12,623 nt of DNA from Promethearchaeota archaeon (GTDB lineage Archaea > Asgardarchaeota > Lokiarchaeia > Sigyniarchaeales > SOKP01), in assembly GCA_048941265.1 (NCBI GenBank), contig JBHLNT010000119.1:1-12623 (forward strand), written 5' to 3'. The notes under the pieces are model-generated. The model ran no database searches and was not told where the DNA came from. It saw only the letters and a program-made list of their open reading frames with translations. The first letter of the stretch is position 1. The number at the start of each line of letters is the position of its first letter. The position numbers and the translations under genes were made by a program. Below are positions 2,923 to 12,088 of the stretch, piece after piece.

Positions 2923-3885
2923 TTATTTAAGTTTTTCAATTTTTCTTATATTTTTTACGATATACATTCGTAAGAAATTATCTCGTGTGAGTTTTCCATT
3001 CGCACTTATTTTTTCGCCTAATTTCAAATTATTCTCATTATGAAGTTTTTCACTTAATCTTAGATTTAATGATTCTACTGATTTTATATCTTCCTCTTTA
3101 TATTCACTTTGTTTTTGAATTCTGGGTCCTATTTTGACATTTTTAAGCGAGGTAAGGTAATAAATTGTGATATTTCCCTGAAAATCTTGTTCTTTTTTCT
3201 CTAAATTTGCGATTTCGCCCTCATATACGGTAATACTATTATTTACTAATTCCATAAATTGAAAATCTTCTGAGCTTTTATCTACTAATCTCATAGCATC
3301 TGTTTTTTCTCCCTCTTCTTCGCTAGGTAATTGTCCCCTCAATACAATAGAATCTATTCTTTCCTCAAAATCCTTTGGTAACGCTGTTAAATTCCAATCT
3401 TTTAAGGTAAAATACCCCTCTTTTAATGAAAATATAAATCCCACCCAGAAATGATTGCAAAAACCCATATTTGATCCAATTCTACAATCACAATCCCGCT
3501 CTGGATTATCAATATTATTCTTTGTTATCGATAAAAACGATGTAATTTCCCAATTAAAACCTTTAAATTTAGTTTCAATTTCATGATTATCTGGGTTCAC
3601 AATTCGAATAGAGTCAATCGATTCTCTATCCTGCCCATTTATTTTTTTAATAGCTAGATCAATCTCCTTGGAAACAATCTCTATTTCTTTCTCCTTGAGT
3701 AATTCTTTCATTTCTTCTTCCGATAATGAATCTAAAATAAATTCAATTATTTCAGCCTTTTTAAATTTTGAGTAACCTACTAATTGAAAATCTTTACAGA
3801 TCTGTTTTAATTCTTTGACATTTAAAGATTGTAATAAGTAGCTCAGATATGTATTATCATCAATCTTGCGTGTCATTTTTTTCAA
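2923..3885 (-). CDS. SWIM zinc-finger protein with N-terminal HeH (Rho-N/SAP-like) domain and putative C-terminal OB fold
   Basis: LQSLNVKELKQICKDFQLVGYSKFKKAEIIEFI fits the Rho_N/SAP helix-extension-helix pattern. CDC-x8-CNH fits the SWIM CxC...CxH pattern. The C-terminus is beta-rich (ITVYEGEI...LKLGEKISANGKL). Likely start is ATG 3876 rather than TTG 3885. Confidence 0.75.
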   Translation of the reverse strand: MKKMTRKIDDNTYLSYLLQSLNVKELKQICKDFQLVGYSKFKKAEIIEFILDSLSEEEMKELLKEKEIEIVSKEIDLAIKKINGQDRESIDSIRIVNPDNHEIETKFKGFNWEITSFLSITKNNIDNPERDCDCRIGSNMGFCNHFWVGFIFSLKEGYFTLKDWNLTALPKDFEERIDSIVLRGQLPSEEEGEKTDAMRLVDKSSEDFQFMELVNNSITVYEGEIANLEKKEQDFQGNITIYYLTSLKNVKIGPRIQKQSEYKEEDIKSVESLNLRLSEKLHNENNLKLGEKISANGKLTRDNFLRMYIVKNIRKIEKLK

Positions 3886-5292: not shown

Positions 5293-5499
5293 ATGCCGGC
5301 TTTATTTGGTGATTTTTTCCGTCATTTATTCCAAATTAAGTTTGGGGAAGAAATTAGTATGAGTGCATTCGATTTCGAAAGATCATTTCATAATTATTTT
5401 ACTTATGAAAAAAAACCCCATGGAAAATATAAATGGGGCGAAATTGACAACAAATCTTCAAAAGATTTCAAAAAGTCGCTTAAAAAATTCTTCGAATAG
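5293..5499 (+). CDS. Small hypothetical protein (68 aa, aromatic-rich)
   Basis: ATG ORF with AGGTGA SD-like sequence at about 5277-5282. It fills an otherwise empty intergenic gap and is followed by T-rich tracts. Confidence 0.6.
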   Translation: MPALFGDFFRHLFQIKFGEEISMSAFDFERSFHNYFTYEKKPHGKYKWGEIDNKSSKDFKKSLKKFFE

Positions 5500-5676: not shown

Positions 5677-6591
5677 TTGACGTCATTTGACTCGATATTT
5701 AAAGATATAAATAAAATAAGCAAAAGCGAAGCTATTGAGCGGCTCCATATATCATATTCCATTGCAGATTCCAAAAAAACTAGAATTAAAATTTTAGAAA
5801 TGTTAAATGAGTTACAAGATAAGACTCATTTTGAAGAAATTGAAAATTATTTCATTTCCGATGAAGATCCAGAAGTAAGGATAGAGGCTGCTAAATTATT
5901 AGCATTTAATTATAATGAAAGAAAAGCAAAAGCAATCCAACCATTGATTTGGGTTTTAGAACATGAAAAAAAGAATGAGCTTAAACTAACAGCGATTAGA
6001 TTATTAGTGCCATTAGCCTATCGGAGGGAGTATAGGAGCCTAATTATTGAAAGTTTAAAAAAAATGTTAAAAAGTAGTGAGGATAATCTTAAGATAGAAG
6101 TTATCGAGTCTTTGGGATTTCTTAAGGAAGAATCTGCAGCAACAGATTTTGTAGAATTGCTAAAATCTTCGAATAAACAGATTCGGATAAGCGCGATTGA
6201 AGCATTAGATAGTTTAAATCATTATCCCAAAACAGCAACACAGTACTTATTAGATAGCCTTGGTTTAGATAATTACATTTTATGGAGATATGCCTTTGAA
6301 ACTCTTAAAAAGAAATTAAATCTAAATCTTTTAATTGAAAAATTATTAAAGATCTTGGAGGAGACTAAAGTTAACGACGATGATCTTAATATTGGATATT
6401 TACGACGTGGAATAATTAAAGCTTTAGGAGAACTTGGCGATAAGCGAGCTGTTAACTCTTTATTAAATGCTCTAAAAGATTGGCATTATTGGGTAAGGGA
6501 AGAAGCTGTGAGTGCTTTAGATAAGATTGAGCCTAAATGGAAAATTAAATATAGAACGAAACTTAAAAAAAATAATATTAATGTTAAATAA
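5677..6591 (+). CDS. HEAT-repeat (PBS lyase-like) protein
   Basis: Repeated units DEDPEVRIEAAKLL, SSEDNLKIEVIESLG, SSNKQIRISAIEALD, LRRGIIKALGELGDKRAVNSLLNALKDWHYWVREEAVSALDKI. TTG start. Confidence 0.9.
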   Translation: MTSFDSIFKDINKISKSEAIERLHISYSIADSKKTRIKILEMLNELQDKTHFEEIENYFISDEDPEVRIEAAKLLAFNYNERKAKAIQPLIWVLEHEKKNELKLTAIRLLVPLAYRREYRSLIIESLKKMLKSSEDNLKIEVIESLGFLKEESAATDFVELLKSSNKQIRISAIEALDSLNHYPKTATQYLLDSLGLDNYILWRYAFETLKKKLNLNLLIEKLLKILEETKVNDDDLNIGYLRRGIIKALGELGDKRAVNSLLNALKDWHYWVREEAVSALDKIEPKWKIKYRTKLKKNNINVK

Positions 6592-6636: not shown

Positions 6637-7506
6637 ATGGGAAATTTATTTAATGAAATTGAAGAGAAATATATCGAAACAAACGGAGTTAAGCTTCATA
6701 CCGTTTTAATTGGTAAAGGAGAGCCCCTAATTCTGCTTCATGGATTTCCAGAATTTTGGTATTGTTGGAAAGATGTGATTCCGGGGTTAAAAGATAAATA
6801 TAAGTTAATTATTCCTGACATGCGAGGCTATAACCTCTCTGATAAGCCGGAAGGTGTTGAAAACTATTCATTGAAGATTCTTGTTGATGATATCAAGGGT
6901 TTAAGTGAAAAATTGAATTTAGGCAAGTTCTATCTTGCGGGACATGATTGGGGTGGAGTGGTTGCATGGGGATTTGCTGAAAAATATCCTGAAATATTAA
7001 AAAAATTGGTAATACTTAATGCTCCCCATTTAATCATATTTAATAATCTATTAATGAAAAAGCAAGATAAGACGCAAGTAAAAGCTAGTGGGTATATATT
7101 TAGATTTTTACAACCTGATGGAGAGAAATTTCTTTTCGAAAAAGATTTTCAAGCTCTAAAATTCGCAGTATTCGGAATGGCAACAAATAAAAAGGCATTT
7201 AGCGACTTTGATAAAGAAAAGTACGTAGAAGCCTGGTCTCAACCTGGCGCAATAACCGCGGGAGTGAATTATTATAGAGCAAGTGCAGCAAATCAATCTG
7301 TTGCTGACCAATGGAACGGTATAATAAACGTCCCTACCCTAGTTATTCATGGAATGAAAGACATGGCATTAACACCTAAAATATTAGATGGATTGGAAGA
7401 ATATGTAAAAGATTTAAAAGTCGTCAGGATCGAGGATGCTTCACATTGGGTATTAGTAGATGACCCGAAATCAGTAATTTCGAACATTTTAGAATTTATA
7501 AGTTAA
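6637..7506 (+). CDS. Alpha/beta hydrolase, epoxide hydrolase-like
   Basis: HGFPE oxyanion motif, DMRGYNLSDKP, nucleophile GHDWGG (Asp), lid tyrosines (GYIF, NYYRA), acid GMKD and catalytic ASHWV. Confidence 0.92.
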   Translation: MGNLFNEIEEKYIETNGVKLHTVLIGKGEPLILLHGFPEFWYCWKDVIPGLKDKYKLIIPDMRGYNLSDKPEGVENYSLKILVDDIKGLSEKLNLGKFYLAGHDWGGVVAWGFAEKYPEILKKLVILNAPHLIIFNNLLMKKQDKTQVKASGYIFRFLQPDGEKFLFEKDFQALKFAVFGMATNKKAFSDFDKEKYVEAWSQPGAITAGVNYYRASAANQSVADQWNGIINVPTLVIHGMKDMALTPKILDGLEEYVKDLKVVRIEDASHWVLVDDPKSVISNILEFIS

Positions 7507-7606: not shown

Positions 7607-8071
7607 ATGTCTGAAAAAGAATTTAGTTGGACTATAAAACTTGATTGGCTTAATATCCTAAATCAATTAGGTTTAGAATCAATACATCAGATTCCAGAGG
7701 AAAAGAGAGATAAGGCAATTAAGAAACTTACAAAAAATTTTGGAACTCAAACATTATTAGATTTAGAACCCTCAGAATTAGACACTCTTGTTGTCGATGA
7801 ATTAAAGGAATTAATGAAAAAAGAACTATTCCTCAGGCAAAAAAAACAAGAGAAGATACAACAAGAAATGCGAAGCAAATTTGTGCCTTTTAAGCAAGGT
7901 GGTATTATAAAAATTGATCCAAGAGATTTTAAAGACTTGGATGTTGATTCTGATAATCCTGAGGATTTTTTAAAAGCATTATACAAAAAACTCATGGGTG
8001 AAAATGATAGTGATGATGAAGATGACGAAAATGATTCATACCATGAGGATAGCACTGGCTATTATATCTAA
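7607..8071 (+). CDS. Hypothetical protein with coiled-coil segment, acidic tail and C-terminal YYI (HbYX-type motif)
   Basis: 154-aa ATG ORF with protein-like composition: charged helix ELKELMKKELFLRQKKQEKIQQEMRSK and tail ENDSDDEDDENDSYHEDSTGYYI. An oligo-T tract follows the stop. Confidence 0.8.
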   Translation: MSEKEFSWTIKLDWLNILNQLGLESIHQIPEEKRDKAIKKLTKNFGTQTLLDLEPSELDTLVVDELKELMKKELFLRQKKQEKIQQEMRSKFVPFKQGGIIKIDPRDFKDLDVDSDNPEDFLKALYKKLMGENDSDDEDDENDSYHEDSTGYYI

Positions 8072-8106: not shown

Positions 8107-9279
8107 CTAAAAAAAATTATCAATCGACATTAATGGGTTCTTAAATTTCTGATATATTCTTACTCCTACTAGAGGTAAAATTTCACATATAATCCTACTT
8201 ATGCATTTTTCATCAATTTTACACGATTTTACAGGTTTAATTCCTTTTAGTAATAAGAATAAGATTGGTACTTTGGGATCAGAGGGTGCCAAATTAGTTC
8301 TTAAATTTTTTAATAAATTTTCTAATTTCTGAACAATAAAATTGTTCATTTTTTCCTTGTCTTTAAATTGTGCGTTGAAGTAGATGGTTTTCCAAATATA
8401 TTTTCTGTTATTTAACCTAATCGGATAAACCTGTTTAATAAATTTGTTCTTATTTGAAACTTTTACAAAAAAAATCCCTCGTTTATATGAAAAATCAGCT
8501 GAACAAGCAGCTTCAGAAGAACCAGGATTATATATCCAATCCTCTAAAATAAATTGAAGATGAAAATGACCTAAAGCTAAATAATCTACGCGATCCTTTA
8601 AAATTTGTACTTTCTGAAAATCAATTCCAGGTACATTTTCCATTTGACCTTGAATACCAAAATGTTGTAGTAAAATATGAAACAATCCATCGTCCACCTT
8701 AATTGCATCTCTAATTTTAAGGAGATATTCTTCTGGTTTTTGACCAAGATATCGCGTCCCATATATCATGGCAGATTTAACTTGTATTTTCCCCCCTTTT
8801 TTTAATGTAAAATCATAGTTCGAAAAAATTTGTTCTGGGGGGTCCTCAATATTCCCGTCGAGAAGTATTACCAATCCTAAACTTGCTAGGAATTTCAACC
8901 AAGATTGACCATGATTAACATTAGTACCTTTTGAATATTTTCTAATATCATGGTTTCCTTCAATTGTGATAATAGGAATCGATCCTTTGGTAGTACTTTT
9001 GAAATCTCTCAAAATATTAACAATTTTTGTTAATTGTTCTGGCAATACTTCAAGCGAAGTAAAAACATCACCCCCTAATATTATAAACTCGACTCTTTTA
9101 CTTATGGCAAGAGTTAAGATCTCTTGAAATGCTCGAATATAGTCATCAGCACGATGAGGATTGCGATATTGTTGACAACCAAGATGAATATCGCTCGCAT
9201 GTATGAATTTAAATGAGGAAATATTAGATAACGAGCTTTTTAACTTATGAAAGTTAGTTTCACTTGTCATAGAATTCAA
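8107..9279 (-). CDS. mre11: Mre11/SbcD-family DNA repair nuclease (metallophosphoesterase)
   Basis: All five phosphoesterase motifs are present: HASDIHLG, GGDVF, GNHD, LQH, GHFH, plus YNPGS. Likely start is ATG 9270. It may be a paralog rather than the canonical mre11. Confidence 0.85.
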   Translation of the reverse strand: MNSMTSETNFHKLKSSLSNISSFKFIHASDIHLGCQQYRNPHRADDYIRAFQEILTLAISKRVEFIILGGDVFTSLEVLPEQLTKIVNILRDFKSTTKGSIPIITIEGNHDIRKYSKGTNVNHGQSWLKFLASLGLVILLDGNIEDPPEQIFSNYDFTLKKGGKIQVKSAMIYGTRYLGQKPEEYLLKIRDAIKVDDGLFHILLQHFGIQGQMENVPGIDFQKVQILKDRVDYLALGHFHLQFILEDWIYNPGSSEAACSADFSYKRGIFFVKVSNKNKFIKQVYPIRLNNRKYIWKTIYFNAQFKDKEKMNNFIVQKLENLLKNLRTNLAPSDPKVPILFLLLKGIKPVKSCKIDEKCISRIICEILPLVGVRIYQKFKNPLMSIDNFF

Positions 9280-9500: not shown

Positions 9501-10934
9501 TTATTTCTTTCTGCCTTTAGGCTCGATTTTTTTAATTATAATCGAATCCGCGTGAATTTTACAATTTTTTAGGATTACTTTAAATCCACCAACACCACCA
9601 GCACCAGGAATAGTCATCCCTACAGTTCCCATGGGAACCATAGCACCTTCTTCTTCCCATTCTTCCTCTTCTTCTTCCCCTCCGACTGCAGCTTTAAAGC
9701 CCTCAGTTTCCATAATTGGATGTTCTACTTTTATTATCCAATCCCTTAATTCGTTAATGTCATTAGCCTCATTCTCAGTCGCAATTTTATCAACTAAATC
9801 AGCTGGAAGAAATTCCGCTACTCTTTCTTTAACTGAAGAAGCCATCCAAACAACTGTTTCTATTCCACTCTTTAAACCATCCTTAATACCATCGTATAAT
9901 TGATATTTGGGTGAAATTATATACTGAAAGCTAATACCATTAAATCCAGGCATTTGTTTTCCCCCACCCGTCTGATTAGCCATTGCACTGAACGGTAATC
10001 CATTTATTGCTACATCACCATAACTTCTATCAACAATACCATGACCATTTACTTCAGGTATATAAAAATCAATCGCTTCAAAACAACCACAGGAAGTATG
10101 AGGGTATTCCATTCCCGAATAAAGATATATTCTATCTATTTCTCCTAGCGAACGTTTCTTTAATGTTTCATTTACTCCTGTAAATTCACCAGCCAATTCA
10201 TTTAAGCATTCACCCGGTTTTACTTCAAAAAGAGGTCCTTTCGGGTCTACGCGAGATGCTGCTCTTGCGTCAAACCAAGATATCGAACCACACAAACTCA
10301 TTCGATTTGGAGTAATGATACAAGCATGTGTAGGTGCGAATGATTGACAAAGGACACACCCATAATACATATCCACATCTTCATCATTTATGCTCCGAGC
10401 CCTCTCATCTCTTGCGTTATATACGCTCATTGCCATTTCATATGGCTTTTCTATTTCTTTGGGATCAGTTATGATTGTAACCATTGCTTTCTTTATAATT
10501 GGTAATTCTGCTTTATATAGTCTAATTAGTACAGTGCCTAGCATTTCGAATGAATTAAAGCCTTTTTCAAATGCAGATTTAGAAATTCTCATCCAATTTG
10601 TATACCTTTGGTTAAGATGCATAATTCCATTAACAAAATTGCAAAATTCATGAACTCGCCTTTCGAAAACGGCTTCCAAGTCTTCTTCTAACTCTGGGCC
10701 AGCAACTTCCACTAGAATACCAATTGGATGGGTTGACCCCTCTTCCATATCCTTAAGATCGGGACCAATTATTTTAATTTGTCCATCTTTAATTTCTTTA
10801 TCTGGCTTCACACGTACGAGTTCAAAATGCTTTTCCATCTTAGGTCCACCGAGTTCTACGTACATTTGCTTTGCACGTATTCGTTCCCCCTCATAAACTG
10901 GTCCTACATCCACAGGGATATCTGAAAAACTCAT
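9501..10934 (-). CDS. cdhC: Acetyl-CoA decarbonylase/synthase (CODH/ACS) complex beta subunit, acetyl-CoA synthase
   Basis: N-terminus PVDVGPVYEGERIR..MYVELGGPK, ERRVHEF.N...GIMHLNQR, A-cluster cysteines GCVLCQSFAPTH, SLCG, HTSCGCFE, and the archaeal C-terminal GGFKVILKNCKIHAD motif after an acidic linker. GAGGAG SD upstream. Confidence 0.97.
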   Translation of the reverse strand: MSFSDIPVDVGPVYEGERIRAKQMYVELGGPKMEKHFELVRVKPDKEIKDGQIKIIGPDLKDMEEGSTHPIGILVEVAGPELEEDLEAVFERRVHEFCNFVNGIMHLNQRYTNWMRISKSAFEKGFNSFEMLGTVLIRLYKAELPIIKKAMVTIITDPKEIEKPYEMAMSVYNARDERARSINDEDVDMYYGCVLCQSFAPTHACIITPNRMSLCGSISWFDARAASRVDPKGPLFEVKPGECLNELAGEFTGVNETLKKRSLGEIDRIYLYSGMEYPHTSCGCFEAIDFYIPEVNGHGIVDRSYGDVAINGLPFSAMANQTGGGKQMPGFNGISFQYIISPKYQLYDGIKDGLKSGIETVVWMASSVKERVAEFLPADLVDKIATENEANDINELRDWIIKVEHPIMETEGFKAAVGGEEEEEEWEEEGAMVPMGTVGMTIPGAGGVGGFKVILKNCKIHADSIIIKKIEPKGRKK

Positions 10935-11007: not shown

Positions 11008-11544
11008 TTATAGGTTTTCAATGATTTTTTCCAAATATTCTTTCCATTCAGAGTTGCTTATATTTGGTAGGCTGAATCTTGCGTTAGGATGAGCGTATTT
11101 GTCTAGATCGATTGTTCGTACCCAATTTGTAAAGTTTTTTAACCGACTTAAAGTTTGACTTACATAATAAACAATGTGCCCGCCAAAAATAGCCATAGCA
11201 TATTGTCCCTTCCCATCGAGACCTTTCCAGTTTTTATCGCTTAGTCTATCTGTAATATTGATTAAAGACATGTCAGTTAGCAGATTTTCATCAATTTTAT
11301 CCTTTAAAAATTTATGAACATGTCCAGTCGCAATTACGGGGCATTTAAGTTTTTCGGCAATTTCTACGAAATAATCTAACGCTAATTTTCCATTAAGCGT
11401 CATATTTTTGGTTAATGATTCCGAGCCAATGACAAACACTTTTTTCTTCGGAGACTTTAAAAGATTCGCCATTACTACTGGATCGGGAACTGTTGTTCCC
11501 ATTTCTGGTCCAGGTATGTTTGCTTTTTGGTATGGTCTTGCCAT
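11008..11544 (-). CDS. cdhB: CODH/ACS complex epsilon subunit
   Basis: PYQKANIPGP N-terminus, WKGLDGKGQY, YYVSQTLSRLKNF and LDKYAHPNARFS are typical of CdhB. It lies directly upstream of cdhC. Confidence 0.92.
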   Translation of the reverse strand: MARPYQKANIPGPEMGTTVPDPVVMANLLKSPKKKVFVIGSESLTKNMTLNGKLALDYFVEIAEKLKCPVIATGHVHKFLKDKIDENLLTDMSLINITDRLSDKNWKGLDGKGQYAMAIFGGHIVYYVSQTLSRLKNFTNWVRTIDLDKYAHPNARFSLPNISNSEWKEYLEKIIENL

Positions 11545-11788: not shown

Positions 11789-12088
11789 ATGTGTGAATTC
11801 AAGATTGTGCGAAAAAATGATGGTTCTCAAATAATGGAGGATATTGTAATTATAAATTATACAGAAGATAATGAAATTGTATTTAAGGATGTGTTAGGAA
11901 TGGCCGAAATAGTAAAATCTGCATTGATTTTGGATGTAAACACTATGAATCAGACATTAATTATAGTGGAACATCCGATAATCAAGAACTTTATTGGATT
12001 GATGAGAAATTTAACTGATAAAAATAAAACAAAAGAAATGATAGAAGATATTATCAGTCAGCTTAATGCATTAAAAAAATCTCTTTAA
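11789..12088 (+). CDS. cooT: CooT-family nickel-binding CODH/ACS maturation protein with C-terminal helical extension
   Basis: N-terminal MCE (Cys2 is the Ni ligand in CooT), IMEDIV, DVLG pattern. GGGAGG SD upstream, and it is adjacent to cdhB/cdhC. Confidence 0.8.
   Translation: MCEFKIVRKNDGSQIMEDIVIINYTEDNEIVFKDVLGMAEIVKSALILDVNTMNQTLIIVEHPIIKNFIGLMRNLTDKNKTKEMIEDIISQLNALKKSL

Follow-up and report, generated by a model that had tools for sequence, protein, structure and literature searches.

What might the C-terminal Tyr-Tyr-Ile of a small, unannotated archaeal protein dock on? The protein in question is encoded on a 12,623-nucleotide contig of Promethearchaeota archaeon, of the class Lokiarchaeia (JBHLNT010000119.1, assembly GCA_048941265.1; the whole stretch is called the window below). 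An initial annotation had presented it as an orphan and as a candidate regulator of the 20S proteasome, acting through a C-terminal hydrophobic-Tyr-X (HbYX) motif. The open reading frame (ORF) lies where it had been placed: the ORF list and the sequence locate it at 7607-8071 on the forward strand (+), with an ATG at 7607, 154 codons, TAT TAT ATC (Tyr-Tyr-Ile, YYI) at 8060-8068 and TAA directly after, at 8069-8071. Our analysis suggests, with a probability of about 0.5, that the product is an ATP-independent, tethered adaptor or regulator that docks on the 20S particle. The part of the earlier proposal that stood is the conservation of the ending, together with the lack of a match to any unrelated family, while the orphan status and a supposed link to a nearby HEAT-repeat gene did not survive; docking on the 20S is what we infer.

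The protein turned out to be unannotated rather than an orphan. A collection of 5.8 billion proteins contained 177 relatives at E ≤ 0.01, and the gene was present in 91 of the 101 sampled genomes of its own GTDB family (f1), mostly in one copy; it is also single-copy in its own assembly (5.0 Mb, 91% complete). Endings and identities were counted on the best 120 of these 177 relatives. They are 55-92% identical, nearly all are 149-158 residues long, and the only name given to them by their sources is 'hypothetical protein'. Their origin is in metagenome-assembled genomes (MAGs) labelled Promethearchaeota or Lokiarchaeota, a few being labelled Thor, Hermod or Hod. No match to the 154-residue protein was found in Pfam or NCBIfam at E ≤ 0.01, AAA and PAC2 included, in agreement with the absence of AAA motifs and of PAC2 resemblance noted earlier. 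Among the papers listed for HbYX motifs and for Asgard and archaeal proteasomes, none dealt with the family as judged by title or abstract.

The ending of the protein is conserved within its own family, where 112 of the 120 relatives end in YYI and 6 in FYI, giving [Y/F]YI in 118/120. The two exceptions look damaged, as one (P0021) reads through past GYHI and the other (P0115) has a truncated or frameshifted end. Two other subfamilies, about 21-28% identical to the window protein, have the same overall architecture (alignment A3, which spans all three). Homologs from the sister GTDB family (f2) end in FYM (2) or FYL (3) in all five cases read, in the form D-P-G-A/S-S-F-Y-M/-L. The third subfamily (25-30% identical) is known from metagenomes and from one NCBI record, Promethearchaeota archaeon CR_4. 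Its 12 members end in MYI (7), MFI (3), MFT (1) and MDI (1), so that D-P-x-x-S/T-M-Y-I is found in 7/12 and M-[Y/F]-I in 10/12. At position -3, f1 has Y or F, f2 has F and the third subfamily has M. The final residue, fixed inside each subfamily, varies among I, M, L and, rarely, T when the subfamilies are compared. A short acidic run precedes the terminal Hb-Tyr-X in the subfamilies. At the level of sequence, this pattern, in which Hb varies (Y, F, M), X varies (I, M, L) and Tyr stays, is the HbYX rule. The two additional subfamilies (f2 and CR_4-type), with their different Hb and X residues, are new here.

Hb-Tyr-X persists between subfamilies that differ in linker, in last residue and in gene neighbourhood, and the expectation that homologs would keep their terminal motif while the tether varies was borne out. 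The stop codon immediately follows [Y/F]YI in 118/120 relatives, FY[M/L] in 5/5 f2 homologs and, likewise, the motif of the CR_4 homolog, which points to a free C-terminus being recognized. Within alignment A1 (45 sequences), D148 is invariant, and conservation is 90% or higher at E147, G151, Y152, Y153 and I154. In the genome of origin, Hb-Y-X ends 55 of the 3441 ORFs of at least 150 amino acids (1.6%), and a lone ending of this kind is therefore unremarkable. Only this gene among the 55 has at least 8 Asp or Glu in the preceding 22 residues. The retention of the ending across three diverged subfamilies is far beyond chance.

The motif is the last of several elements along the protein, which are arranged as follows:

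7607..8071 (+), the whole gene, 154 codons plus TAA, of an unannotated family found in Loki-type Asgard archaea
7607..7879 (+), helical head, residues 1-91, from the AlphaFold2 model and conservation in alignment A1
7817..7879 (+), long Lys/Arg/Glu/Gln-rich helix closing the head, residues 71-91, from AlphaFold2 and alignment A3
7886..7936 (+), middle motif P-F-K-x-G-G-I-I-K-I-D-P-R-D-F-K-D, residues 94-110, from conservation
7958..7993 (+), short amphipathic helix P-E-D-F-L-K-A-L-Y-K-K-L, residues 118-129, from conservation and AlphaFold2
7997..8044 (+), acidic low-complexity tether, residues 131-146, pLDDT < 50, variable between relatives
8045..8068 (+), candidate terminal docking peptide E-D-S-T-G-Y-Y-I, residues 147-154, from conservation, with the stop codon next to it

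An AlphaFold2 model built on alignment A1 matched the small helical N-domain, charged helix and disordered acidic tail of the initial annotation. The predicted local distance difference test (pLDDT) value was about 78-95 over residues 1-90, mostly 89-95, with helices predicted at 7-11, 14-21, 31-45, 47-52, 55-69 and 71-91. A weak helix was placed at 118-129, and pLDDT fell below 50 for 94-104, 111-113 and 131-154. In alignment A1, W8 and W14 of the head are invariant, and L12-D13-W14-L15-x-I17 and E65-L66-x-x-L69-x-x-K72-E73-L74 nearly so, as are P118 and K127 of the 118-129 helix. A basic helix is found at the position of residues 71-91 in all three subfamilies (alignment A3 columns 70-100). 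The placing of the motif on a flexible tail able to reach the alpha ring is a prediction only.

Comparisons of the head with known structures returned no related family. No PDB entry matched in Foldseek at E ≤ 0.001, the best E being 2.6. With VIA-align, the top score among 48,161 chains was Z 5.1, and several extracytoplasmic function (ECF) sigma-2 domains reached Z 4.0-4.5. We assign no fold to the head because these scores fall in the noise for helical bundles. A profile search of PDB sequences had eukaryotic uS19 as its best match, which was not significant (E 0.14-0.3), and the ESM Atlas provided no usable match. Together with the Pfam and NCBIfam results, these searches link the protein to no known unrelated family.

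In the other subfamilies, the middle motif takes the form of a hydrophobic strand with D-F/L-K behind it (alignment A3). Since model confidence is low in this region (pLDDT about 50), the motif may fold upon binding. Its G-G-I-I-K-I-D-P resembles the first strand of the N-domains of Cdc48 in this genome (G-x-G-I-I/V-R-I/L-D-P), but we do not claim homology, as a search with a profile of the region (residues 92-132) put Cdc48 at E 2.3, amid noise. A separate observation concerns P0142 (L045:3069-3818 (-), in G005:C137), a protein of 249 residues with an N-terminal CDC48_N domain (Pfam E 5.4e-14) and the family's middle module at its C-terminal side. Here the module comprises I-K-I-D-P-R-D-F-R-D-L-D, a helix and an acidic run; the protein, found in one genome only, ends acidic without YYI.

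The genome that encodes the protein also encodes a complete and rich proteasome system, against whose members its ending can be compared. It has two alpha genes (G000:C312:4295-5011 and C343:13159-13869) and two beta genes (on C119 and C106) for the 20S particle. The two PAN-like ATPases end in LYM and IYS, and the three Cdc48 paralogs in LYR, LYR and LFI, the Cdc48 endings being preceded by acidic residues. In the LFI paralog (G000:C331:63281-65512 (+)), Phe replaces the usual penultimate Tyr. Three PAC2 genes (PbaA/PbaB-type, PF09754) end in YYQ, YFQ and LYI; the first two form a tandem pair at G000:C167:679-2394 and the third lies at C212:9431-10246. Across 13 genomes of the family, 30 PAC2 ORFs, picked crudely by position and length, end in YYQ (8), YFQ (6), YFR (6), LYI (6), LFM, YYR, LYR and ILE (1 each, the ILE one probably being a neighbouring gene). 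Each of these 13 genomes has 3-5 PAC2 matches, showing that the PAC2 repertoire of the lineage is expanded. Endings of the types Y-Y-x and x-Y-I both occur on PAC2 proteins of the lineage; therefore, both halves of Y-Y-I are in use in a 20S-binding family. The ending of the 154-residue protein is accordingly like those of the 20S partners encoded in the same genome, and this lexicon of PAC2, PAN and Cdc48 endings is likewise new here.

On the receptor side, alpha subunit residues P18, G20, E26 and K67 are invariant in 26/26 canonical orthologs of the family. By our own mapping, these would correspond to Pro17, Gly19, Glu25 and Lys66, and their invariance shows only that the receptor exists. 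A complex prediction with three canonical alpha copies (A2) and residues 95-154 (A1), made for a partial ring and without control runs, scored 0.19 and 0.28, below the mark of 0.32, and counts neither for nor against binding.

In an archaeon, the best-supported receptor for a conserved Hb-Y-X at the extreme end of a flexible tail is the 20S alpha pocket, which PAN, Cdc48 and PbaB use in this way, as does PA200 in eukaryotes. According to PMC3605417, PbaB of P. furiosus is ATP-independent, carries flexible HbYX 'tentacles', and binds and activates the archaeal 20S; its tripeptide is needed for 20S binding and for an approximately 3-fold activation that depends on a lysine of the alpha pocket. 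The 154-residue protein resembles PbaB in being non-AAA, in its presumed independence of ATP, and in having a flexible C-terminus with an HbYX-type tripeptide. However, it has no PF09754 match, whereas the same model finds the three PAC2 genes elsewhere in the genome. Its head of about 90 residues is predicted to be all-helical, in contrast to the three-layer alpha-beta-alpha PAC2 fold, PbaB is a tetramer, and the tether described here is much more charged.

As described in PMC7077846, the YYA of PA200 inserts between alpha5 and alpha6, where both Tyr side chains bond Gly19 and Glu25 and the Pro17 turn is displaced. Y-Y-x is therefore a proven HbYX variant. The Tyr-Tyr-X ending is shared, and the equivalent alpha residues are invariant in this lineage. 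In contrast, PA200 has about 1800 residues and sits on the ring as a monomeric cap, a dome made of HEAT repeats, while our 154-residue protein has no detected HEAT repeats. With PAN and Cdc48/VAT it shares the same type of tag at the extreme C-terminus but not the AAA+ domain, as no AAA family matched. Hence, it can neither unfold nor translocate substrates and could at most dock, open or block the gate, and compete with the ATPases. Furthermore, Pfam gave no match at E ≤ 0.01 in the 154-residue protein to domains of PI31, PA28 or PA200-Blm10 or to HEAT-like repeats.

Two bacterial systems offer parallels of design. Bpa/PafE is a small, all-helical protein, with a four-helix bundle as protomer of a large ring, whose disordered C-terminal tail docks in alpha-ring pockets through a penultimate Tyr. 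The design logic is the same, in actinobacteria there and in Asgard archaea here; Bpa chains were not among the Foldseek, VIA-align or PDB sequence matches listed, in searches that discriminate small helical domains poorly. SspB has a folded cargo head, a long flexible linker and a C-terminal peptide that docks on the ClpX N-domain. Adaptors of this type provide an analogy of architecture only, with a different peptide and no sequence or fold relationship.

From these elements, we propose a cytosolic protein in which a folded helical head, the middle motif and a disordered charged tether would present a C-terminal Hb-Tyr-X with a free carboxylate. The last three residues would insert in the pockets between 20S alpha subunits. 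In the version that we favour, the head would recruit a client, or a partner that serves as an anchor, to the 20S, with the tail seated in the pocket. The tail would thereby compete with the tails of PAN, Cdc48 and PAC2 proteins, and it could possibly help open the gate. Whether the protein is an activator, an inhibitor or an adaptor cannot be told from its sequence.

Several observations weigh against docking on the 20S. The gene was not found in three genomes of f1 that are nearly or fully complete (G011, 99%; G054 and G089, both 100%), and its absence from several high-quality genomes means that it is dispensable or replaceable. The penultimate Tyr is replaced by Phe in 4/12 and by Asp in 1/12 members of the third subfamily, and by His in P0129 and P0021. 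Hb-Y-X alone terminates the 1.6% of long ORFs mentioned above. Each chain has one tail, and a monomer would fill only 1/7 pockets. No proteasome, PAN, Cdc48 or PAC2 gene adjoins the gene in any subfamily. Finally, eight residues (E-D-x-T-G-Y-Y-I) are conserved, with the last one fixed within each subfamily, which is more than HbYX needs and could reflect a more specific, different receptor.

This last point leads to the first of the alternatives, in which the terminal peptide would dock on a receptor other than the 20S, such as a binding domain of Cdc48 or another AAA+ protein, a translation factor or a lineage-specific protein, with the head delivering cargo there. We consider it rather unlikely, even though the excess conservation of the ending favours it. 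The distribution of the gene, limited to a few Loki-type lineages, is also as would be seen for a lineage-specific partnership. The single fusion of the middle module behind CDC48_N would fit as well, in a protein that lacks YYI, but the likeness of the motif itself to the first CDC48_N strand is not significant.

No candidate for such a receptor was found. PDZ domains are the main other receptor class for C-termini of this kind (class II, hydrophobic-x-hydrophobic-COOH). The PDZ models PF17820, PF13180 and PF00595 gave 0 matches in the genome of origin (91% complete), while controls were positive in 12-14 of 14 genomes. Five near-complete relatives carrying the gene had no PDZ match above the curated cut-off, with two sub-threshold matches in genus g8. 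A search for PUB domains gave no match, its control being equally silent. We know of no receptor other than the 20S alpha pocket for conserved Hb-Y-X C-termini in archaea. The PDZ check is a further addition of this work, as is the finding that synteny is not conserved across the subfamilies.

Gene neighbourhoods contribute to this alternative in one respect, namely that two of the subfamilies have translation genes close by. The f2 loci have as neighbours a short-chain dehydrogenase/reductase (SDR), a C92 peptidase and a metallo-beta-lactamase (MBL) family protein, or else eIF2-gamma, MBL and alanyl-tRNA synthetase (AlaRS), the eIF2-gamma and AlaRS genes being those of locus L102 (G267). The CR_4 record (L134) has the order L31e, eIF6, prefoldin, FtsY, this gene and phosphofructokinase (PFK). 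At a further locus, L098 (G316), a neighbouring ORF is AlaX/DHHA1-like, as judged by eye only. However, the neighbourhoods differ in every subfamily, and the translation-gene neighbours and the weak uS19 matches are each not significant alone.

Two neighbours in the window were set aside as partners. An alpha/beta hydrolase gene at 6637-7506 (+) separates the gene from a HEAT-repeat gene at 5677-6591 (+), which is the second gene upstream and has the same orientation, as noted earlier. The hydrolase adjoins the gene at 19 of 29 f1 loci and is absent beside it in f2 and CR_4; we read this as the gene order of close relatives and not as an operon partnership. The HEAT-repeat neighbour was likewise discarded as a meaningful link, since HEAT_2 has 37 matches across the genome and the neighbourhood is not kept between subfamilies.

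An improbable explanation is that the protein works by way of its charged, disordered part, as an acidic chaperone or mimic whose targets are basic or bind nucleic acids (histones, Alba, ribosomal proteins). Its own basic helix might hold it auto-inhibited, and the aromatic end would be no more than an anchor in that interaction. The own-family tail is strongly acidic, with 19-38 residues, a net charge of -11 to -2 (median -7) and a median D+E fraction of 0.48 (114 of the 120 relatives parsed). The basic helix 71-91 lies upstream of it, and both Alba and a phosphoesterase of the DNA-repair type are encoded in the window. The overall acidity, however, is not kept, as the tether of the third subfamily is mostly Lys-rich, with a short acidic run before the end. 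With a tether that varies to this extent, selection acts on the end and not on bulk charge. What is kept is the exact terminal position and the tripeptide, and the position of the stop codon right behind the motif argues, as above, for recognition of a free C-terminus. It is very improbable that the terminal peptide marks the protein, or cargo bound to its head, for degradation or turnover, which would make the protein a substrate or substrate shuttle of an archaeal protease. C-terminal non-polar tags behind a disordered stretch do act as degrons in bacteria, and the predicted disordered tail would suit as an initiation site. However, the motif agrees with the tags by which regulators encoded in this genome dock and with no known degron, we know of no archaeal degron of the C-terminal Hb-Y-X kind, and the idea merges with 20S docking if the protease is the 20S.

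How far the family extends bears on what 20S docking would mean. The family is narrow, because an exhaustive search of 1.84 billion cluster representatives returned just 22 proteins at E ≤ 0.001. Within f1, the gene is present in 33/36 high-quality genomes and in 13/13 genera. In 301 Asgard genomes, the family profile detected it in 61/68 f1 genomes, in 0/7 f2 genomes and in two further genomes (G271 and G317); these two bins aside, no other Asgard family had the gene. The broader profile made from alignment A3 found it in 93/102 f1 and 6/10 f2 genomes, and in 0/8 genomes of four other families of the class. The two matches outside the order (G271:C267:2242-2694 and G317:C363:3029-3298) are the sole ones and occur in bins that are 7-9% contaminated. 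The G271 copy is nearly identical to the family and scores like a within-family copy (E 1.5e-64). Given this contamination and the near-identical copy, both matches likely represent bin contamination rather than true presence.

The known range consequently comprises a single order, in which two GTDB families have the gene, plus one more Loki-type MAG record. No relative was found on viral contigs, and no longer fused form occurred among 8000 scored candidates. The initial annotation had attached special interest to an Asgard host; restricted as it is to Loki-type lineages, the gene has little bearing on eukaryogenesis.

The remainder of the window, whose G+C content is low (0.25-0.38), carries archaeal genes encoding CdhC, CdhB, CooT, Alba, a nicotinate phosphoribosyltransferase (NAPRTase), a MaoC pair, the HEAT-repeat protein, the alpha/beta hydrolase and an Mre11-like phosphoesterase. 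The latter, at 8107-9279 (-), is of the calcineurin type and reaches 88.5 bits against an Mre11 equivalog cut-off of 600; no Rad50 gene is visible beside it in the window. At this position, other genomes have CdhC, or else a protein with a PHP domain and about 480 residues. An ORF of 68 residues at 5293-5499 (+) is without a family match and recurs near the gene at loci L006, L013, L021 and L023, and it is probably a real small gene. The protein encoded at 2923-3885 (-), of 320 residues, starts with a Rho_N/SAP-like domain (Pfam E 2.8e-7), has a C-x-C-x9-C-x-H pattern that resembles a SWIM zinc finger, and is otherwise unassigned. A carbon monoxide dehydrogenase/acetyl-CoA synthase (CODH/ACS) cluster is formed by CdhC at 9501-10934 (-), the CdhB epsilon subunit at 11008-11544 (-) and CooT at 11789-12088 (+), which is consistent with the Wood-Ljungdahl pathway. 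CdhC has a run of six Glu close to its C-terminus.

This unrelated protein family, which carries an HbYX-type docking design and is restricted to Loki-type Asgard archaea, is a credible, if unproven, candidate for a new partner of the proteasome. Going further, we tentatively raise the possibility that the 154-residue protein founds a new family of 20S partners that is specific to Lokiarchaeia, works without ATP and has no kinship with PAC2, PI31, PA28, PA200 or Bpa. Its novel helical head would recruit a client or an anchoring structure, and its tail, competing with PAN, Cdc48 and the expanded set of PAC2 paralogs, would open the gate or block it. If so, the proteasome of Loki-type Asgard archaea would be served by a network of several regulators, almost as complex as that of eukaryotes and independent of it in origin. 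To our knowledge, few partners of the archaeal 20S are known, namely PAN, Cdc48 and PbaA/PbaB. A fourth tagged family unrelated to them in sequence would show the alpha-ring pocket to be a common docking point, open to newly evolving proteins. Were the tail to bind another receptor instead, that receptor would be a new archaeal module for the recognition of C-terminal peptides. If docking on the 20S is correct, the family would bring one more, unexpected level of control to the proteasome in the closest archaeal relatives of eukaryotes.

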